Source of the DNA: a virus
Taxonomy: Duplodnaviria > Caudoviricetes
Direction: 5' to 3' (one strand)
Virus record (IMG/VR): IMGVR_UViG_3300021962_000124
Coordinates: 1 to 58,311 of that record
Length of the DNA: 58,311 bases
The position numbers were made by a program, and so were the translations under genes. Shown piece after piece: positions 50,591-58,311 of the stretch. Below the pieces are notes generated by a model. That model worked only from the letters and a program-made list of their open reading frames with translations. It made no database searches and was not told the origin of the DNA. Each line of letters begins with the position of its first letter. The first letter of the stretch is position 1.

Positions 50591-50734
50591 TCATCGAAAA
50601 GTTGCATTGACACCTACAACTTTTGCAGTAGGATTTCGTGCTTGTGCAGTCTCGCGGGCATCTTTCGGGGAGTTAGCATACACTTCCTCCTTGAAGACTT
50701 TACCACCAACGTATAACTGAACTTCGTATTTCAT
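50591..50734 (-). CDS. Small hypothetical protein
   Basis: Hand-translated 47 aa MKYEVQLYVGGKVFKEEVYANSPKDARETAQARNPTAKVVGVNATFR. Confidence 0.75.
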   Translation of the reverse strand: MKYEVQLYVGGKVFKEEVYANSPKDARETAQARNPTAKVVGVNATFR

Positions 50735-50753
50735 TGGATTGTTTGTACTTTGA

Positions 50754-50860
50754 GAAAAATCGTTAATTTGACTGCAGCGGATGACCTATGACACCCTCAC
50801 AGTAGAATTGCAGAAAAAACAGGTTTTTGGTCTAGTGCTGGACTGGGTTCTCAGCGAGAC
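50754..50860. other. ~110-bp structured intergenic element, copy A
   Basis: Shares blocks GGATGACCT, AGAATTGnAGAAAAAnCAGGTTTT and CYAGT-n5-ACTGGGnTCTCAG, in the same order and spacing, with 57354-57464. Confidence 0.75.
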
Positions 50861-50871
50861 ACAAGTGAGAA

Positions 50872-51063
50872 TTACAGCGTCTGCCAGTCTTGTGCCTCTT
50901 TCAAGTTAGAGTTAAAGAACTTTTGTAGAATGGAACTGATCACAGGTTGCCATTCTCTGTCTTTAATTAGGTCACGATTTTGTGCTTCAACAAGAAACTT
51001 AAGGATGCAAGTCTCTTCATTAGCAGTGAAATCAACGCGAGTGAAAGTGTATCCGTCAGTCAT
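50872..51063 (-). CDS. Hypothetical protein
   Basis: MTDGYTFTRVDF...; TGATG overlap with upstream ORF. Confidence 0.7.
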   Translation of the reverse strand: MTDGYTFTRVDFTANEETCILKFLVEAQNRDLIKDREWQPVISSILQKFFNSNLKEAQDWQTL

Positions 51064-51221
51064 CAATCGTCTCCAAAGTTGTTAGCAAGAAAGTCCTCAA
51101 GTTCAGCGAGTTTGGTAGGAGTTAATGCCCAAACATATTCACTGATAATTGTAGCGAGAAGGTCAGGATCTTCACGACATTTCTCATTCAAAAAGAACTC
51201 AAGTTCAGTGAGTTTGTTCAT
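51063..51221 (-). CDS. Small acidic protein
   Basis: Hand-translated 52 aa MNKLTELEFFLNEKCREDPDLL... Confidence 0.7.
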   Translation of the reverse strand: MNKLTELEFFLNEKCREDPDLLATIISEYVWALTPTKLAELEDFLANNFGDD

Positions 51222-51223
51222 AA

Positions 51224-51379
51224 TCAAACCTCTTCACGCATTTTGAGAAGTTCTCTACGAAGTTCGCCACCTTCATAGGCAAGAAGACCCGTAGTTTCAA
51301 TCATGTTATACCATCCTTCATCTTGGTGATACTCAATCAGGGCAACTAGAGCATCAATTTGTGTGGTTGTTAAAGTCAT
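51224..51379 (-). CDS. Small protein (paralog of 50015..50164)
   Basis: Hand-translated 51 aa MTLTTTQIDALVALIEYHQD...KMREEV. Confidence 0.7.
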   Translation of the reverse strand: MTLTTTQIDALVALIEYHQDEGWYNMIETTGLLAYEGGELRRELLKMREEV

Positions 51380-51381
51380 AA

Positions 51382-51549
51382 TCAAACAGGGGTAACTTCA
51401 ACGGAACGGATAAGATTTGTGCGATCTTGCGCTAGATAATCGTCTGCAATCTTGCCACAAGATGAACGCGATTGAATGATCTTTTCTTCGTATAGGTTCT
51501 CATCTTCATCAGGAACCCAATACTCAATCAGAAGGCGATAGTTCTTCAT
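51382..51549 (-). CDS. Small hypothetical protein
   Basis: Likely start MKNYRLLIEYW after TGATTATG. Confidence 0.7.
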   Translation of the reverse strand: MKNYRLLIEYWVPDEDENLYEEKIIQSRSSCGKIADDYLAQDRTNLIRSVEVTPV

Positions 51550-51551
51550 AA

Positions 51552-51794
51552 TCAGTACAGAGGGCAGAATGAACCACAGAAGCGACGAACCCACTGCAAA
51601 GTGTCATAATGACTGCGGGGTTTCGACATCACCATGCTTTTATTTGTTTCAGGGTTGAGAGCAATAGCAACGTATTTGTGGTCACATTCCTGATACTCAG
51701 GAGTGATTTGTTGAATAAACATTTGACGTACAGTACCTTCTTTCCAGTTGGTAGTGTAGTGAAAGACTTGATCCATTTCAGTGGTTGTGCTCAT
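51552..51794 (-). CDS. Hypothetical protein
   Basis: 80 aa, ATG in repeat copy 7. Confidence 0.7.
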   Translation of the reverse strand: MSTTTEMDQVFHYTTNWKEGTVRQMFIQQITPEYQECDHKYVAIALNPETNKSMVMSKPRSHYDTLQWVRRFCGSFCPLY

Positions 51795-51824
51795 ACTATA
51801 GGGACACTTTGAAGGCCCCAGGTT
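51792..51824 (-). repeat. 33-bp element, copy 7
   Basis: catactatagggacactttgaaggccccaggtt (identical to copy 5). Confidence 0.95.
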
Positions 51825-51857
51825 TCAATCAACCTGAGGTAAATCAGGTTTATTTTA

Positions 51858-52163
51858 CTACCTTAAAGAATAGACTTCATCACCAACATCACTCAGAAGA
51901 TTTTGTTGAACGTAATCTCGAACATCATTTGAGTAATCAACAATTTTACCTCCCAAAATTACAAGTTCAGTTCTCAACCTTTCAGAAAGTAGATCTTTTG
52001 AAAAGTAAGTTATTGAGGGATCATTGTCGGGAATGGTTGGATCGTAAATGTTTCCTTTAGCAGATTTTTTAACACACCAATCGTAAGATACGATAGATTT
52101 AATTTTATCTTCTTCTGGAAGAAGTTCTACCCTACGACCAGACTTTTCGTGATAGATTTTCAT
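51858..52163 (-). CDS. Hypothetical protein
   Basis: 101 aa, only gene between copies 8 and 7. Confidence 0.7.
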   Translation of the reverse strand: MKIYHEKSGRRVELLPEEDKIKSIVSYDWCVKKSAKGNIYDPTIPDNDPSITYFSKDLLSERLRTELVILGGKIVDYSNDVRDYVQQNLLSDVGDEVYSLR

Positions 52164-52183
52164 TTGAGTTTGAGAGGTGTGCT

Positions 52184-52216
52184 TACACTATGGGGACACT
52201 TTGAAGGACCCAGGTT
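52184..52216 (-). repeat. 33-bp element, copy 8
   Basis: tacactatggggacactttgaaggacccaggtt. Confidence 0.9.
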
Positions 52217-52224
52217 ACTGATAC

Positions 52225-52488
52225 TTACCAAGTTCCACGTTGGATGTGGATCTTGCGGATCTCTTGATAAAGAAACTGACGAAGTTTAGGTTCGGAAGTG
52301 TTATCAAAAGCATAATAAAGACGATTCAAGTATTCATCCTGTGTGGCACCTATGTTACCATCACCACCGATCTCATTGAGTGCAGAACCTGCAACAACTT
52401 TGCTCTTGCCGAAGTTGCCAGACACACGCCCAGATGTCCTCAGTTTGGGTTTGATCTTTGAGAGGTTAGAGTAAGTCATTGACATCAC
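52225..52488 (-). CDS. Hypothetical protein
   Basis: SNLSKIKPKLRTSG.VSGNFG...; 87 aa. Confidence 0.75.
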   Translation of the reverse strand: MMSMTYSNLSKIKPKLRTSGRVSGNFGKSKVVAGSALNEIGGDGNIGATQDEYLNRLYYAFDNTSEPKLRQFLYQEIRKIHIQRGTW

Positions 52489-52916
52489 TTCGCGTACAGA
52501 TAACCACCAGACCAGTCTGCATTTTCCAGCAGATACTCACGATCTTTGATCAATCGCAGGTCATAACGAACACCTTTGGCAGGAGATTTCCAGGTGGCAG
52601 ACTTATACACTTCGCCAGTGTTCTTATCAATGAAGCAATGAACACTACGCGATCCGCCACCACTCACAAAGATGACTTTGTGATACTTTTTACCAGTCTC
52701 AACAGTATAATCAATGTCACACTTGCCAGACTTGAGTTCATCAATCTTGCGCTGATGATACTCTTGAGTGTCAGCATCATTCACGAACTTTTGATGACCG
52801 CGAATAGAATACTGACGATAATTGTCTTTCAATGCTTCAATCAGCAGCAGAGTGTTCTTATACACATTGTCTGCAATGGTTTGTTGTGCTTGTGCTTGCA
52901 TTGTAGTTGTGCTCAT
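52485..52916 (-). CDS. Conserved phage hypothetical protein
   Basis: GKKYHKV..SVHCFIDKNTGEVYKSATWKSPAKGVRY; start placed at or after the ATG of copy 9 because the ORF-track extension crosses the repeat. Confidence 0.8.
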   Translation of the reverse strand: MSTTTMQAQAQQTIADNVYKNTLLLIEALKDNYRQYSIRGHQKFVNDADTQEYHQRKIDELKSGKCDIDYTVETGKKYHKVIFVSGGGSRSVHCFIDKNTGEVYKSATWKSPAKGVRYDLRLIKDREYLLENADWSGGYLYAK

Positions 52917-52946
52917 ACTATAAGGACAATTTGAAGGCCCCAGGTT
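52914..52946 (-). repeat. 33-bp element, copy 9
   Basis: catactataaggacaatttgaaggccccaggtt. Confidence 0.93.
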
Positions 52947-52950
52947 ACAT

Positions 52951-53859
52951 TCACCAATTCTTTTGAAGTGTAAAGTTTTGACGACTGAACTCTTCACGAT
53001 TTACGATCTTGTACGATCCAAACTTGTTGGTCATAACATAACCTTCGTGATCGCTCAGTTGTCCATCAATCTCACACGAAATGTCGGTGTCAGATTCAAT
53101 GAAGCAGAACAAATCCATCTTGATAGATTCAACCAACTTCCACAAACGCAGAACATTCACATCAACATCATAATTTTCTGCAATTTCATGCTCATCGACC
53201 TCCTTACCCTCACGGATGTAGGAATTGATGACTTTTTTGAGTTCTGTTGCTTGTTTGTTGCTTACAAAGGTGCAAAGAGTGCTCATTTGTTTAGCAAACT
53301 TGCAGAAGTCTTCGATGTCATCACGATGAGGACAGATAGATGCTTCAGGTTGCACCCATTTCACATCCAGAGTATCAACAAACTGTTTGCTGATAGGATG
53401 TGCAACAGCATTGCGAAGATCACTCTCACAATCATACTCAGTGTGAGGAGCAATGATTACACTTTGCTCGATCACCTCATCGAACTTGTAAGTGATCGTA
53501 TTGGGGCGATAAGTATCATCACCGCCAAAACCAATAAAATCACCTTGATAGATGTGATTTGTGCGAGGAAGACTATCAAAGCAAGCATGAAGAATAGTCG
53601 CAACTTTACCCTCATGGTTCGCATCAATTTCTTCATGTGAATGATTGATCTTGATCTTTACTTTGTTGAACACAGATTTGGTGCCAACGAAGAACTTACC
53701 ATTGGCAGGATTGCGACCCCACACAATAGCAGGAGCACCATCAATCTTGACACTGATAGTAGAATCAGCAGAGAACCAATCAAGAACCGAAAGATCACCC
53801 GTAAGGATCATATCTTCAGGATGTTCGAGATGTTTGTTTTGCATTGGTTGCTTGCTCAT
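52951..53859 (-). CDS. Protein with ligase/nucleotidyltransferase-like motifs
   Basis: HLEHPED N-terminus, SVKIDGAP (KxDG), HEGYV, YKIVNR. Confidence 0.7.
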   Translation of the reverse strand: MSKQPMQNKHLEHPEDMILTGDLSVLDWFSADSTISVKIDGAPAIVWGRNPANGKFFVGTKSVFNKVKIKINHSHEEIDANHEGKVATILHACFDSLPRTNHIYQGDFIGFGGDDTYRPNTITYKFDEVIEQSVIIAPHTEYDCESDLRNAVAHPISKQFVDTLDVKWVQPEASICPHRDDIEDFCKFAKQMSTLCTFVSNKQATELKKVINSYIREGKEVDEHEIAENYDVDVNVLRLWKLVESIKMDLFCFIESDTDISCEIDGQLSDHEGYVMTNKFGSYKIVNREEFSRQNFTLQKNW

Positions 53860-53889
53860 ACTACTACGACAGTTTCAAGGCCCCAGGTT
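53857..53889 (-). repeat. 33-bp element, copy 10
   Basis: catactactacgacagtttcaaggccccaggtt. Confidence 0.88.
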
Positions 53890-53892
53890 ATA

Positions 53893-54096
53893 TTAAACTT
53901 GCACCAATTTGGCAAGACGATTGCGAATATCAAAGATCTCCATTTCATCCATATCTACGGCATCCAAATCTACAGGAGCAAACTCCTCAAGATTTACATT
54001 TCCGTCAGCATAGATGGGTGCATAATACAACTCATCACCATCTTCTTGCGAGAGAGTATAAACGCAACCGTGACCAGGAACAGTGAGAAAAATCAT
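53893..54096 (-). CDS. Small acidic hypothetical protein
   Basis: Likely start MIFLTVPGHGCVYTL. Confidence 0.7.
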   Translation of the reverse strand: MIFLTVPGHGCVYTLSQEDGDELYYAPIYADGNVNLEEFAPVDLDAVDMDEMEIFDIRNRLAKLVQV

Positions 54097-54117
54097 TGGA
54101 GTTTCACGAACAAAGGT

Positions 54118-54163
54118 ACAATAAAGGAGCACAAGCATAAAAGCAAGTGCTCCTGTGACAGTT
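54118..54163 (-). promoter_or_regulatory. Stem-loop with embedded sigma70-like promoter and upstream AAACTGTCACA box
   Basis: AGGAGCAC / GTGCTCCT stem; TTGCTT-17 nt-TATTGT. Confidence 0.5.
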
Positions 54164-54165
54164 TA

Positions 54166-54423
54166 TCAAGCGGAACGACGCTTGCGGGTTTTAGTAACAG
54201 TAGCAGGTTGCTCCACTACTTCAGCAGGAGAAAGTTGTGCTTTACCAAACTCAATCAGTGTATCAACAAACTTCAGAAACTGAAGAGTTGCAACACGAAC
54301 TTTCTCACTTCCATTGTTCTCATTGAAGGAACGAATGAGGAATTGAACTACACCAACAACGACGGCACTGATAGTAGCGACGTTCTTGACGAGAGTATCA
54401 ACAAATGTCCAGTAAAAGGTCAT
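54166..54423 (-). CDS. Hypothetical protein with hydrophobic segment and basic tail
   Basis: Likely start MTFYWTFVD; VATISAVVVGVVQFLI; ends KTRKRRSA. Confidence 0.7.
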   Translation of the reverse strand: MTFYWTFVDTLVKNVATISAVVVGVVQFLIRSFNENNGSEKVRVATLQFLKFVDTLIEFGKAQLSPAEVVEQPATVTKTRKRRSA

Positions 54424-54458
54424 AGTTTGTATTAGAAACTGCGGTGGGGACACGTCCT

Positions 54459-54491
54459 CACATCATAGGGACACTTTCAAGGCCCCAGGTT
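54459..54491 (-). repeat. 33-bp element, copy 11
   Basis: cacatcatagggacactttcaaggccccaggtt. Confidence 0.9.
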
Positions 54492-54495
54492 TAAC

Positions 54496-55269
54496 TCAAC
54501 CAAATTGCGTCAGATCAACTGGAATGTTTCCAATTCGATCCTCTGCGATCTTAAAGTATTCGGAATCACTTTCCATACCAATGAACTTACGTCCTAGTTT
54601 TACAGCAGCAACACCTGTAGATCCAGATCCCATACAATTATCCAACACAACTTCACCCTCGTTAGAGTAAGTTTTTACCAACCATTCCATTAGTGGAACT
54701 GGTTTTTGTGTAGGATGAACTTGTTGCTGAGCACTGAAATCTCTTGAAATGTTGAGAACTGACTTCGGATACCTTGTACCATCATTAGAGAATGATTTGC
54801 GTGGTTTCATACCATAACCATGATCATTCTTTCGACCAACGTAACCCTCTGGGTTCTTACTTGTTCTTGAGTATGGTTCTCCTTTTTCCATCTGTGGGTT
54901 GTATGTACCACCTGCGTTCTTGTAGAAGATCAGAATGTTCTCGTGAGTCTTCATTGGTCTGTATTTGGCAAGTCCAGGCGACCCACATTTGTTCTTGTTC
55001 CACACTAACTCGTACCTGAACCATTCTAACTTTGAGCAAATAAGTTGTGCGGAAAAAGGCTGAGAACCAAACAGGCAAATCACACCCTTAGGTTTAATGA
55101 TTCTGCCATACTGTTCCCACATAAGGTTAAAATCTAAAACCTCATCCCATTTGATCGAAGTAGTACCAAAAGGTGGATCACAGCAAATAAAATCAATAGA
55201 AGAATCGGGGATGTCTTTCATCAACTGAAGGCAATCCCCGAATTGTAGATCAAAGTTGCTCAAAACCAT
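54496..55269 (-). CDS. DNA amino-methyltransferase (N6A/N4C, beta class)
   Basis: GDCL, motif IV DPPF, HPTQKPV.L, motif I VLDNCMGSGSTG, in beta-class order. Confidence 0.93.
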   Translation of the reverse strand: MVLSNFDLQFGDCLQLMKDIPDSSIDFICCDPPFGTTSIKWDEVLDFNLMWEQYGRIIKPKGVICLFGSQPFSAQLICSKLEWFRYELVWNKNKCGSPGLAKYRPMKTHENILIFYKNAGGTYNPQMEKGEPYSRTSKNPEGYVGRKNDHGYGMKPRKSFSNDGTRYPKSVLNISRDFSAQQQVHPTQKPVPLMEWLVKTYSNEGEVVLDNCMGSGSTGVAAVKLGRKFIGMESDSEYFKIAEDRIGNIPVDLTQFG

Positions 55270-55855
55270 TGTGTGCGTTAATTTTGCGGCGTACAGATTC
55301 CTTGTAACATTCTACCAGAAACTTGTATGCTTGTCCATAGTCACGCTCAACGGGTTGAGTGTTATCCTTCCACTTAATTTGGAAGGGAAGATTATTACCA
55401 TTTGGAGTAATCTTCTGAAGAGACTTGAGACTTTGCAGATAAACTTTCTGAGTTCCCTTATCTACAACAATGATATAATAATCACGGTTGTTCTCTGCTC
55501 CACTGTGATTCTTCAGTGCATCCTGGAACTTTGCCCAGGAACTTGCATTAACTTGATCTTCAGGAAGATCAGTCAGAGCATACAAAATTGCTGCTTTTGA
55601 CGAAAAGTTATCTGCTGCACCTTTGTTGAAATCAGATGACTTAATGTTGAGATAATACCCAAACAATTTGACATCCCACCAGCAACGTGCTGGTGGTTTC
55701 TCTACATTTTCAGGACCATACTTCTCAACAAGAAGATCAATTACAGTGTCTTCATCTGCAATACTATTCACTCGCCCATCTTCATGACTCTCACTAATTG
55801 TAACAATGCCAGAGAGATAACTCACTACATCGGTAAGTTGTTGCGGAAAGTTCAT
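55250..55855 (-). CDS. Putative type II restriction endonuclease
   Basis: Overlaps the methyltransferase; E...WWD...NIK arrangement compatible with a PD-(D/E)xK variant. Confidence 0.55.
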   Translation of the reverse strand: MNFPQQLTDVVSYLSGIVTISESHEDGRVNSIADEDTVIDLLVEKYGPENVEKPPARCWWDVKLFGYYLNIKSSDFNKGAADNFSSKAAILYALTDLPEDQVNASSWAKFQDALKNHSGAENNRDYYIIVVDKGTQKVYLQSLKSLQKITPNGNNLPFQIKWKDNTQPVERDYGQAYKFLVECYKESVRRKINAHNGFEQL

Positions 55856-55867
55856 GTGGTTAGTGGT

Positions 55868-55900
55868 TACAATGAAGAGACAGTTTCAAGGCCCCAGGTT
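55868..55900 (-). repeat. 33-bp element, copy 12 (3' part degenerate)
   Basis: tacaatgaagagacagtttcaaggccccaggtt. Confidence 0.85.
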
Positions 55901-55904
55901 AGCA

Positions 55905-56108
55905 TTAGTCAATAGGTAATTTTGCATTAGAGCAATTTTTTCTGTGGTCGGTGATATACTTTCGTGCAGAACTTTCAGTCCTACAGAGTTTCTCAAGTTG
56001 CTGACCATTGTGGATGATTAGATACTGATTTCCATAAGGAATTGCAGCATAGGTGTCTTTGAACATCGTAAATCCTTCTTTCATTTTAGAAAAACTTAGT
56101 TTGTGCAA
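55905..56108 (-). CDS. Small hypothetical protein
   Basis: YAAIPYG.QY.IIHNGQQL..CRT..SA; true start probably MKEGF. Confidence 0.7.
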   Translation of the reverse strand: MHKLSFSKMKEGFTMFKDTYAAIPYGNQYLIIHNGQQLEKLCRTESSARKYITDHRKNCSNAKLPID

Positions 56109-57231
56109 GATTACCTAGTGCAGGTTTCATTAGTGGATTAGATTCTGCCAGGAACTTATTCCAAGAAGTGCTATCAGATCCTTCAAAAGGAATAGCGGTA
56201 TTCTGAGTTCCCTTAAACTTCAACCGTTTGATGCGACAATAATCATTGTAAAGAAATACAAAACGACAAACAGCAGGTTCATTTCCTTTATAGACACCAT
56301 TACCCTGAACAACATCAGATTGTTTGAGATTTCTAGCATCAGGATCAACCACACTCATAATGTCTCCATATTCAGTGAAGTAAAACTTCATCATCCCAGA
56401 AAATGAATCAACGTTGTTCTTTTTATCCACATCTTCAATATAAGAATGGAATGTTTTCAAGAAAAGAGAACCAGCAACAGTAGCATTGCCTTCAACATCT
56501 CTTGCACATTCGTGGGTAGTAAATGCTGTCAGATATTTTGTTGTATATTCTCTACCTGCCAGACGAATAGCAGTGCTCAAATATGAATGAGAAGGACAAT
56601 TAAACTTTGCCCCGTCAAGAGTTCCTGCAATACCAATACTGAACTTGGAAAGATATTGGTAGAGATTAGTTGCCCACTCTTCTTCGGCATAATATGCAGA
56701 CTTGAACTTATCATCACCACTTTGGTTAGTTCGATAGTTACAATCTGTATTGTGATCCAATGACTCAATGCGAATCATTTCCTCATAAGAGACACTCTTA
56801 CGATGCAATTTAAGAGAAACAATTACTCTTGCATTTTCATTTCTTCCGCAAGCATATCGTTTTGATGCACGATTATTTCCTTTTGTTAGAACTGCTTTTA
56901 GAGTTGGACGAAGATATGCAGAAAGAGTATCTGCAGCATCATAAGAAAACCCACCTCGTTTTTCGATGTGCTGTTTCTGATTACCATACCTAAGTTCTTC
57001 AATACGATTGTAGGTAGGATCGCTCCAAAGATCTCCAACTTTAGCAGAACAAATGACTGTAGAACCTTCAGCAATCTCTCCAGAGTTATATTTGGAAACA
57101 ATATCTTCCATAAGAGGAAGATTTTCTGGCGGGTTATCTACTGTTCCAAAACCTTGCAAGTATTCTTTGGTCTTATCATCTACCTTATCTTCGTAACACT
57201 TGCACACGCGAAGAAGTTCCTTAAATGCCAT
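56086..57231 (-). CDS. Hypothetical protein, possible ParB/Srx-like N-terminal domain
   Basis: 381 aa; VGDLWSDPTYNR and LTKGNNR resemble ParB/DGQHR-type motifs; AGGAGG ribosome-binding site. Confidence 0.7.
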   Translation of the reverse strand: MAFKELLRVCKCYEDKVDDKTKEYLQGFGTVDNPPENLPLMEDIVSKYNSGEIAEGSTVICSAKVGDLWSDPTYNRIEELRYGNQKQHIEKRGGFSYDAADTLSAYLRPTLKAVLTKGNNRASKRYACGRNENARVIVSLKLHRKSVSYEEMIRIESLDHNTDCNYRTNQSGDDKFKSAYYAEEEWATNLYQYLSKFSIGIAGTLDGAKFNCPSHSYLSTAIRLAGREYTTKYLTAFTTHECARDVEGNATVAGSLFLKTFHSYIEDVDKKNNVDSFSGMMKFYFTEYGDIMSVVDPDARNLKQSDVVQGNGVYKGNEPAVCRFVFLYNDYCRIKRLKFKGTQNTAIPFEGSDSTSWNKFLAESNPLMKPALGNLAQTKFF

Positions 57232-57268
57232 TTTTAGCCTCCTTTGTTTTTGCTAAAATTATAGTTTG

Positions 57269-57335
57269 AAAATCAACCGTTTTTATGTGTTATGGTTGAT
57301 TTTTTTAGTTTAACAACTTTGGGTAGGGATGTCAA
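57269..57335 (-). promoter_or_regulatory. Sigma70 promoter with downstream 10-bp inverted repeat
   Basis: TTGACA(57330-57335)-17 nt-TAAACT(57307-57312) with extended TG; AAAATCAACC-n15-GGTTGATTTT at 57269-57303. Confidence 0.7.
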
Positions 57336-57353
57336 GCCCTGGATCACACTTTT

Positions 57354-57464
57354 GAAAAAATCAGTGATTTCCTTGTGGTGGATGACCTGTAGGGTCTGTG
57401 ACGCAGAATTGAAGAAAAATCAGGTTTTGACCCCAGTCCACCACTGGGATCTCAGTGGGTCTCA
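57354..57464. other. ~110-bp structured intergenic element, copy B
   Basis: Aligns block for block with 50754-50860; perfect CCCAGT-ccacc-ACTGGG hairpin. Confidence 0.75.
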
Positions 57465-58311
57465 CCTGCGAACCACCGACACAGCAGGTTCGCCCTTCTC
57501 AAAGATCGTATCAACCACTGCCTGCACACTGCGGGCGGTGCTGATACCAACCTTAGAATACACAGGGATACACACAAGACCAAACGATTTGGTATATTGA
57601 CCCAGGTTGCCAGGTTGGATGCTACCATCGCGCAAACCTTTGGCATCATCGTGATGCAGACGGATGCAACGTCCGATAGTCTGACTGATACCAATGAAGT
57701 CCATATTACGCAGGAACAGCACTGCTTCCAGACCGCTCACATTGATACCCTCAGCGAGGATACTGTGGTGAAGAACAACGAACTTCTTATCGTTATCCTT
57801 ACCCCAGGCAGATAGCGTGTCGAAGAACACCTCACGATTGACCTTCTGACCATCAATAACTGCACCTGTCTTAGCAGTAATATACATCCAAGAGAAACCA
57901 CGTTGCTCTAGTTCAAAGCAGAAGTCAGTTTCAGACACCAGCGAAACGATTTGCTTGGTTGCTTTAGCACAAATCAGAATCTTACCGACCTTGTTCTCAT
58001 CAATAGTTTCCAGCAGGTTAGCAGCATCGCGGTCGAAGTTGGTCTGCTTACCCTTCACCATCTCCAGTTGCTTGACGATCACTTTAGGGGGTACAATGTA
58101 ACCACCTTCGACAAGTTCAGGAGCAGGAACTTTGCAGATGACCTGACCATAAACTGCAGCATCATTCATTCCAGGTTTGCCAACGGCAAGGGAATGTTTG
58201 GGAGTTGCAGTGAAGAAGTAGCAGCGACGTGCATTAGCAGCAAAGTGCTCAGTTGCAGGGAAAAAGTGACGCTGAACGCTGTTATGTGCCTCATCAAAGT
58301 AGATCGTATCC
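57462..58311 (-). CDS. SF2 (DEAH) helicase, ResIII-like, 5'-truncated by the window edge
   Basis: Frame is open to the window edge: YFDEAH, FTATPK, ILAEGINV, QTIGRCIR. Confidence 0.9.
   Translation of the reverse strand, partial: DTIYFDEAHNSVQRHFFPATEHFAANARRCYFFTATPKHSLAVGKPGMNDAAVYGQVICKVPAPELVEGGYIVPPKVIVKQLEMVKGKQTNFDRDAANLLETIDENKVGKILICAKATKQIVSLVSETDFCFELEQRGFSWMYITAKTGAVIDGQKVNREVFFDTLSAWGKDNDKKFVVLHHSILAEGINVSGLEAVLFLRNMDFIGISQTIGRCIRLHHDDAKGLRDGSIQPGNLGQYTKSFGLVCIPVYSKVGISTARSVQAVVDTIFEKGEPAVSVVRR

Follow-up and report, generated by a model that had tools for sequence, protein, structure and literature searches.

A conserved intergenic cassette beside the helicase gene of T4-like cyanophages: a possible orientation-independent promoter module

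A viral contig of the Caudoviricetes (IMG/VR record IMGVR_UViG_3300021962_000124, analysed over its whole length of 58,311 nucleotides and called the window below) carries two diverged copies of a non-coding element, one beginning in the stop codon of a helicase gene and the other filling the gap between two small genes. The question raised by this locus is what such an element does. Our analysis suggests a portable promoter module of the sigma-70 type that carries hairpins, works in either orientation and probably fires in both directions, a relative of the promoter-early stem-loop (PeSL) cassettes of T4-type phages; we give this reading a probability of roughly 45%. From the observed anatomy, conservation, spacing, orientation, copy number and insertion of the cassette, we infer where RNA polymerase would start, in which direction it would run and what role the transcripts might play. 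All genes around the element lie on the minus strand of the window, so that minus denotes the gene-sense (forward) strand and plus the reverse strand.

The original prediction had proposed two diverged copies of one element of about 110 bp, and both copies proved to be beyond chance. Copies A (50735-50871) and B (57338-57472) are 80% identical over 142 columns of a minus-strand alignment. With three mismatches allowed, the 24-base core AGAATTGNAGAAAAANCAGGTTTT occurs exactly twice in the window (50804-50827 and 57405-57428), where 100 shuffles gave an expectation of 0.00, and GGATGACCT occurs three times against 0.31 expected. The real extent, obtained with nhmmer and by re-reading the boundaries, is about 135 nt for each copy. 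The proposed order of blocks with equal-length, diverged spacers was found in both copies, as were the hairpins CCCAGT/ACTGGG (copy B) and TCTAGT/ACTGGG (copy A). The elements had also been placed at stop codons; the stops are present, but on the minus strand (TAA at 50872-50874, TGA at 57462-57464) and not at the plus-strand starts. A suggested tie to a 33-bp repeat of the same region through AAAACCTG was not sustained, as this word occurs three times in the window against 3.19 expected by chance. The parts of the two copies are as follows.

50735..50871: copy A, whole intergenic cassette, from the stop codon of the 64-aa gene to the ATG of the phrog_685 gene (nhmmer 50870-50738, E 1e-36)
50831..50860: copy A, hairpin region, with H1 (GTCTCGCTGAGA, 50849-50860) and H2 (50831-50847)
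50802..50827: copy A, invariant core, read on the minus strand as AAAACCTG, a T6 tract and CTGCAATTCTAC
50781..50808, plus strand: copy A, promoter-like site, ATGACC (50781-50786), 16-bp spacer and TAGAAT (50803-50808), with 9/12 matches in a consensus scan
50804..50812, minus strand: copy A, extended -10-like motif TGC-AATTCT, one base off the plus-strand hexamer
50741..50770: copy A, distal A/T cluster with phasing of about 10 bp, CAAATTAA, GATTTTTC and AAAGTAC
57338..57472: copy B, whole cassette, beginning inside the helicase stop TGA at 57462-57464 (nhmmer 57472-57338, E 1e-34)
57432..57466: copy B, hairpin region, with H1 (57450-57466) and H2 (CCCAGT-GGTGG-ACTGGG, 57432-57448)
57403..57428: copy B, invariant core, read on the minus strand as AAAACCTG, a T5 tract and CTTCAATTCTGC
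57382..57409, plus strand: copy B, promoter-like site, ATGACC (57382-57387), 16-bp spacer and CAGAAT (57404-57409)
57341..57371: copy B, distal A/T cluster, GAAATCAC, GATTTTTTC and AAAGTGTG

Copy A fills its gap exactly, from the TAA of the 64-aa gene (50872-50874) to the ATG of the phrog_685 gene (50734). The invariant core comprises the highest-information columns of a 66-sequence alignment. Length variation is confined to the hairpin half, which lies nearest the upstream gene, and the other 85 bp or so are fixed in length and unstructured.

The cassette is not peculiar to this contig. Its exact core was found in 41 IMG/VR stretches, representing 27 distinct sequences including the two of the window, and a looser core pattern was found in 108 stretches, 94 of which carried the element by nhmmer (90 nearly full-length). 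From IMG/VR contigs and cultured Kyanoviridae, 100 distinct versions were collected. BLAST of copy A against phage records returned 130 records at E up to 10 and reached cultured Kyanoviridae of several genera (Syn33, S-RIM12, S-RIM50, ACG-2014a/b/g/f and S-CAM8); seven Escherichia phage records among the 130 were taken as chance. Copy B gave two weak matches only, and reached S-CREM1 weakly. According to a sequence-only covariance model applied to five genomes of 174-284 kb, there are one or two copies per genome (three large IMG/VR genomes have 2, 2 and 1, while Syn33 and S-CREM1 have a single copy apiece). An origin in cellular genomes was considered and rejected: a degenerate core pattern gave three matches in 185,579 species genomes (Treponema, Verrucomicrobiota and Bacteroidota), none of them cyanobacterial, and we regard these three as a chance T-rich word because only model positions 45-69 matched. 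The ordered blocks recur in many relatives, and neither outcome that would have refuted the original prediction was observed. No description of this element was found in the literature searched. The cassette is real, widespread and, as far as the searched literature shows, undescribed; with versions across several genera, it is among the best-conserved non-coding sequences of its lineage.

Where the cassette sits was examined in 80 loci collected through the helicase protein, six of which were too short to judge, leaving 74 informative loci. The element was present in 38 of the 80, on the helicase strand right after the stop codon in 37 and inverted in one; a 45-nt short form took its place in 20, and 16 had neither, so that the cassette is missing from 36 of the 74 relatives with enough sequence. 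It lies almost always 0-2 genes past the helicase gene. In all eight isolates examined it keeps this distance and is antisense to every neighbouring gene, an arrangement shared by two IMG/VR members (L032 and L038), whereas in lake and estuary contigs it is sense-oriented. The inverted cassette is notable because essentially all genes of Syn33 and S-CREM1 lie on one strand.

Comparison with close relatives showed how the cassette comes and goes. In the window and in one relative (G001), a cassette of about 137 bp lies exactly between the 64-aa and phrog_685 genes, while another relative (G003) lacks the cassette at this place and its two genes overlap at ATGA. Copy A thus represents a clean insertion into this junction. 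In the short-form relatives phrog_685 directly follows the helicase gene. In the window 6.6 kb separate the two genes and each junction has its own cassette, the two direct copies flanking a 6.5-kb gene block, and the genes downstream of the helicase-side cassette vary widely among relatives. The cassette marks the border between the helicase gene and a variable small-gene region, and relatives can acquire or lose it whole, as happens with PeSL cassettes. The two genes that bound this region are listed below.

57462..58310, minus strand: helicase gene, 3' part only, running past the window end (phrog_16 DNA helicase, E 6e-39)
50591..50734, minus strand: 47-aa phrog_685 gene, directly after copy A (E 1e-21)

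Counterparts of the phrog_16 gene are annotated as helicase in related isolates, and the PHROG matches around the two copies (helicase, endonuclease, methyltransferase and phrog_685) are all on the minus strand. Gene order between 50872 and 57464 also differs from that of Syn33 (L043): the endonuclease and methyltransferase genes of the window follow the helicase gene, between the two cassette copies, while the endonuclease and dam methylase genes of Syn33 precede it.

In the fixed part of the cassette, length is held more strictly than bases. In relatives whose helicase genes are 0.46-0.67 identical at four-fold sites, the element is 0.63-0.74 identical to copy B and contains near-invariant blocks. 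From AATTCT to CATCC no indel was observed in any of 66 aligned elements, though the bases are nearly free, and the middle segment between these two motifs comes in three types that are equally long but unrelated in sequence. Over the roughly 85 bp between AAAACC and AAAGT, 65 of the 66 showed no length change. Indels of 1 nt are present in the hairpin part. A/T tracts occupy alignment columns 67-71, 76-81, 86-89, 127-130 and 136-141, with an autocorrelation peak at 9-10 bp. The T5 tract is an A5 tract in S-CREM1 and S-RIM50, and all members of the antisense class that were examined have an A-run as their distal tract. Such flips of A/T tracts and of hairpin loops are neutral for duplex DNA but not for RNA, and therefore point to a constraint at the DNA level.

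The plus strand of the fixed-length segment carries a promoter-like arrangement. Its -35-like and -10-like hexamers are separated by 16 bp in 99 of the 100 distinct elements; the former is ATGACC in 69, ATGGGT in 15 and ATGACT in 7, and the latter is TAGAAT in 74 and CAGAAT in 15. The usual -35/-10 criteria are passed by this site in 65 of the 100. The distal A/T cluster lies about 48-68 bp upstream, which is the usual place of UP elements and bent DNA. In both copies the minus-strand hexamer AATTCT and the plus-strand hexamer TAGAAT (CAGAAT in copy B) are offset by 1 nt. In the commonest geometry of bacterial bidirectional promoters (PMC10268837), -11A and -7T pair reciprocally and the two transcripts begin 18 bp apart; the cassette hexamers have this reciprocal geometry, with predicted starts 18 bp apart.

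The minus-strand motif has counterparts in relatives. The short form that follows the helicase gene in 20 of the 80 loci reads CTGATTTTTCTGC-TATACT-AC; TTGTCA precedes it by 17 bp, and a Shine-Dalgarno sequence and an ATG come after it. The TGC-AATTCT stretch of the cassette is clearly homologous to this putative TGC-TATACT sense promoter. Also homologous to the core is TGC-AATACT before Syn33 gene 063, with TTGCCA 17 bp upstream. In the short form (L068, L069, L087 and 17 further loci), the final helicase codons build an 8-bp hairpin with the -35 hexamer TTGTCA in its loop and the stop codon in its 3' arm, followed by a T-run and TGC-TATACT; by its layout, the short form is a predicted terminator plus promoter within 45 nt.

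A further promoter-like sequence stands beside copy B. Directly after it, at 57238-57335 on the minus strand, a near-consensus promoter sequence (TTGACA-17-TAAACT with TG) leads into a hairpin (ATCAACC...GGTTGAT), a T-run, AAGGAGG and a 381-aa phrog_15918 gene; copy B and this sequence stand back to back, and the hairpin has chance-level Rfam matches only. Known regulator sites were also sought by eye in the cassette: there was no convincing match to the NtcA site (GTA-N8-TAC, as given in PMC3037559), nor to the Pho-box and IHF consensus sequences.

These features suggest how the cassette might work. Read along the minus strand, it would lead from the upstream stop codon through one or two hairpins of variable length into the length-invariant segment of about 85 bp. 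The plus strand of that segment would constitute a full sigma-70-type promoter, made up of the A/T tracts, the -35-like ATGACC, a free spacer of 16 bp and TAGAAT or CAGAAT. One base off, on the minus strand, TGn-AATTCT would act as an extended -10 element homologous to the sense promoter of the cassette-less relatives. With this offset pair of -10 sequences, the cassette could fire in both directions; it would then still work after inversion, which is the simplest account of why both orientations are kept. In the window, the better promoter would run against the genes and enter the helicase gene and the 64-aa gene from their 3' ends; in the marine isolates it would point with the genes.

Several observations weigh against a bidirectional promoter module. 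The plus-strand site fails the criteria in 35 of the 100 elements, its -35 hexamer always beginning with A and not T. None of the 100 elements passes the criteria on the minus strand, where TGn-AATTCT has its TG in just 78 and T at -12 in none. Promoter-like sites are not enriched in the region as a whole (25 against 26.2 in shuffles). Among close marine isolates (helicase 96-97% identical), the element is 79-99% identical and thus shows no extra conservation, and the sequence-only covariance model did not find it in Syn9, S-PM2d, P-HM2, P-SSM2 or S-RSM4. The antisense direction of the better promoter in the window has no apparent purpose, the near-invariance of AAAACC, TGAGA and CCACCACT is not explained by a promoter, and one or two copies per genome is unlike PeSLs.

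The cassette resembles PeSL cassettes in several respects. As described by Arbiol et al. (2010, PMC2839356) and Comeau et al. (2014, PMC4122927), PeSLs are promoter-early stem-loop cassettes of T4-type phages. Both they and the present cassette are intergenic blocks of about 100 bp with A/T-rich DNA, sigma-70-like hexamers and stem-loops; both lie at the edge of a hyperplastic small-gene region and are gained or lost as a unit (PMC2839356). Like a PeSL, the cassette is intergenic, copy A filling a stop-to-ATG gap and copy B beginning in the helicase stop, and it is tied to gene gain, loss and replacement between relatives, as in G003, which lacks copy A. There are also differences. The cassette is present in one or two copies per genome, whereas PeSLs number dozens; its passing promoter (65/100) faces away from the downstream gene in the window, whereas the -35/-10 pair of a PeSL (N17 ± 1) faces the gene. 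Furthermore, the cassette occurs in both orientations, its hairpins lack a consistent terminator T-run, and conservation of its core goes far beyond what a promoter requires.

The closer PeSL analogue in the window is the 33-bp repeat rather than the cassette. This repeat has 12 copies between 46962 and 55910 (e.g. 51787-51834), reads AACCTGGGGCCTTGAAAGTGTCCCTATAGT on the minus strand, has a later ATG about 15-25 nt downstream in at least 7 of the 12 copies, and heads most small genes of the region. From its letters, it looks like a phage-specific promoter with TATAGT as -10 and an invariant AACCTGG at -35 in place of TTGACA. A 340-nt IMG/VR contig (L216) contains the element plus an inverted partial core (CTGCAATTCTGCTGCA ... 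TGCAGTAGAATTGCAG), which adjoins an inverted repeat of the 33-bp type; this arrangement may be a relic left by an inversion.

Symmetrical bidirectional sigma-70 promoters (Warman et al. 2021, summarised in PMC10268837) resemble the cassette in their opposed -10-like hexamers one base apart, reciprocal -11A/-7T and starts 18 bp apart. Any ANNNT is symmetric, however, so that geometry alone is weak evidence, and the 26-nt flanking invariance and phased tracts of the cassette fall outside that model. A different comparison is offered by the Rfam RNA motifs of cyanophages, e.g. PhotoRC-II, manA and wcaG, which comparative genomics likewise identified as conserved and non-coding in marine cyanophages. 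Unlike these, the cassette has no covarying structure that we could find, and no Rfam model matches either copy.

Whether the cassette acts as RNA was addressed by several structure tests. Over the window, Rfam gave no match at the gathering score; when E values up to 10 were admitted, none lay inside copy A, and none inside copy B, with sub-threshold chance matches only at 57250-57325, outside the element. RNAalifold predicted no pairs, whether applied to 29 forward sequences or, on the reverse strand, to the hairpin half of 55. H1, H2 and a third helix in the spacer, all drawn by eye, were 62.3% paired against 62.6% in shuffles and showed no covariation beyond shuffles, covariation being counted in fixed columns. 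A hairpin just before the first T-tract did slightly better and showed weak covariation: it was 69.7% paired against 65.7%, with 16 double-change cells against 7.2, a value reached by none of 500 shuffles. When individual sequences were folded, the hairpin half had a mean z of -1.39 on the minus strand and -0.96 on the plus strand, and the fixed-length half -0.21 (forward) and -0.55 (reverse). The proposed preference of the hairpins for the plus strand holds for raw energy (H1 in 51 and H2 in 39 of 66 elements; copy A, -5.5 kcal/mol on the plus strand against -1.1 on the minus) and for G-U pairs (75/442 against 18/338), but shuffle-corrected scores do not favour that strand, which is G/U-rich. 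Terminator potential is mixed: hairpins are present, the T-run is an A-run in some members, and the registers differ. The element is thus most likely not a folded RNA. The original prediction, of a structured non-coding RNA or a multi-site DNA element, is thus supported in part: the RNA option found no match in Rfam and no covariation of the named helices beyond shuffles, while the multi-site DNA option fits better, in view of the fixed spacing around free sequence, the phased A/T tracts of either polarity and the freedom of orientation relative to the genes. A promoter module is a role absent from the examples then given.

The loops of H2 were examined separately (alignment A3, columns 51-60). 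Loops of opposite polarity, CCACC/GGTGG and CCAGC/GCTGG, both occur across the family, as had been suggested from the two copies. Between close relatives the loops are exact reverse complements with the stem kept (GCTGG/CCAGC and GGTGG/CCACC, seen in L058 versus L107 and in window copy B versus L003); such loop flips are the signature of small hairpin inversions by strand switching.

Other explanations have to be weighed against a bidirectional promoter module. The cassette could be an independent small or antisense RNA gene, in which the plus-strand promoter yields an RNA of about 70-80 nt over AAAACC and the T-tract, H2 and H1, a product that might pair with the 3' end of the upstream gene as an antisense RNA, or might act in trans. 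A self-contained unit usable in either orientation, the low copy number of one or two per genome, the conserved sequence just downstream of the best promoter, and the plus-strand advantage in raw hairpin energy and G-U pairing would all suit this idea. We consider it rather unlikely: RNAalifold found no pairs on the plus strand, the helices lack covariation, and the plus strand is less unusual than the minus strand against composition-matched shuffles (z -0.96 versus -1.39). Moreover, no terminator follows, Rfam has no match, this part contains 1-nt indels, and the polarity flips of the loop and the first A/T tract would alter the RNA. An unlikely alternative is a one-way cassette of the PeSL type, with terminator hairpins, a sense TGn-AATTCT promoter and a leader of about 70 nt, the plus-strand hexamers being incidental. 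It would draw on the homology to the short terminator-promoter form of the 20 relatives, on the similar TGC-AATACT before Syn33 gene 063, on the partly covarying hairpin and T-run before the core (16 versus 7.2; 0/500 shuffles), and on a span from stop codon to next ATG at the border of variable genes. It is contradicted by the antisense orientation to all genes in 8/8 isolates, by the failure of all 100 elements to pass the sense-strand criteria and by the A-run that replaces the T-run in S-CREM1 and S-RIM50. The leader itself has no conserved fold, its middle exists in three unrelated types of equal length, and in copy B and about ten relatives it leads not to a gene but to the full promoter sequence TTGACA-17-TAAACT.

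A replication-origin-type or protein-assembly DNA site, combining a promoter with bent, easily opened DNA so that a transcript primes DNA synthesis, is quite unlikely in our judgement. The size of about 100-135 bp, with a promoter-like site, phased A/T tracts and palindromes, is consistent with it, as are orientation independence, one or two copies per genome and the place beside a replication-type helicase gene. Size and layout resemble the minimal origins oriF and oriG of T4, which the review PMC3016281 describes as spanning about 100 bp and combining a promoter with an unwinding element rich in A+T; like these, the cassette joins a promoter-like site to adjacent special DNA and would function whatever the direction of neighbouring genes. 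Unlike them, it has no MotA-type box, no A+T-rich unwinding stretch downstream and no skew signal. Cyanophages are not known to have MotA. Downstream of the promoter-like site, about 20 bp of A/T tracts give way to G+C-rich hairpins, and with a mean skew of +0.07 the predicted transcript shows no richness in G. In S-CREM1 and Syn33 cumulative GC skew is monotonic, without an inflection at the element, a weak test as the genes are one-stranded. Absence from 36 of the 74 informative loci and from the five model cyanophages likewise speaks against an origin. T4 oriA, for its part, lies near soc and not by dda (PMC3016281). A broader possibility, also unlikely, is that T4-like cyanophages have here their first recognisable element of the replication-origin type, or an orientation-free transcription unit with a short transcript acting on DNA or RNA. 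A strong promoter and bent DNA would then fire a short conserved transcript beside the helicase gene, and this transcript would serve either as a primer for DNA synthesis or as a silencer of the neighbouring operon at its 3' end.

A small protein gene on the plus strand, starting at an ATG within GGATGACC, was rejected and is very improbable. The two window copies do have open frames of 42 and at least 73 codons, and VELQKNQV recurs in the translations. Across the family, however, frame length runs from 2 to more than 70 codons and 1-nt indels interrupt it: among 58 anchored elements, the frame has at least 30 codons in 35, 10-29 in 16 and fewer than 10 in 7, three of these seven being mis-anchored at an earlier ATG, and it stops 2-5 codons in for the antisense-class members S-CREM1, Syn33, L032 and L038. 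Spacer-encoded residues are not conserved. The ORFs annotated over the element lie in different frames in different phages (Syn33_062, ACG-2014g gp054, S-CAM8 P29A0810_050, S-RIM50 gp184 and ACG-2014a Syn7803C42_48), and these short hypothetical ORFs in GenBank are probably spurious. No conserved frame explains the similarity between copies.

Elsewhere in the window, direct-repeat families (D2, D4-D10) of 27-177 nt occur between 14953 and 38223, within long, seemingly structural (fibre-like) genes on the minus strand.

T4-like cyanophages are among the most abundant viruses of oceans and lakes, and their transcription signals are known from a few model phages; none of the five model phages searched has the cassette. 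These genomes transcribe nearly everything from one strand, yet they keep the cassette in both orientations. If the cassette were an origin, an open question would be answered. If it is a bidirectional or antisense promoter, as we tentatively favour, it would provide a handle on antisense control and on the switching and exchange of accessory gene blocks beside replication genes.

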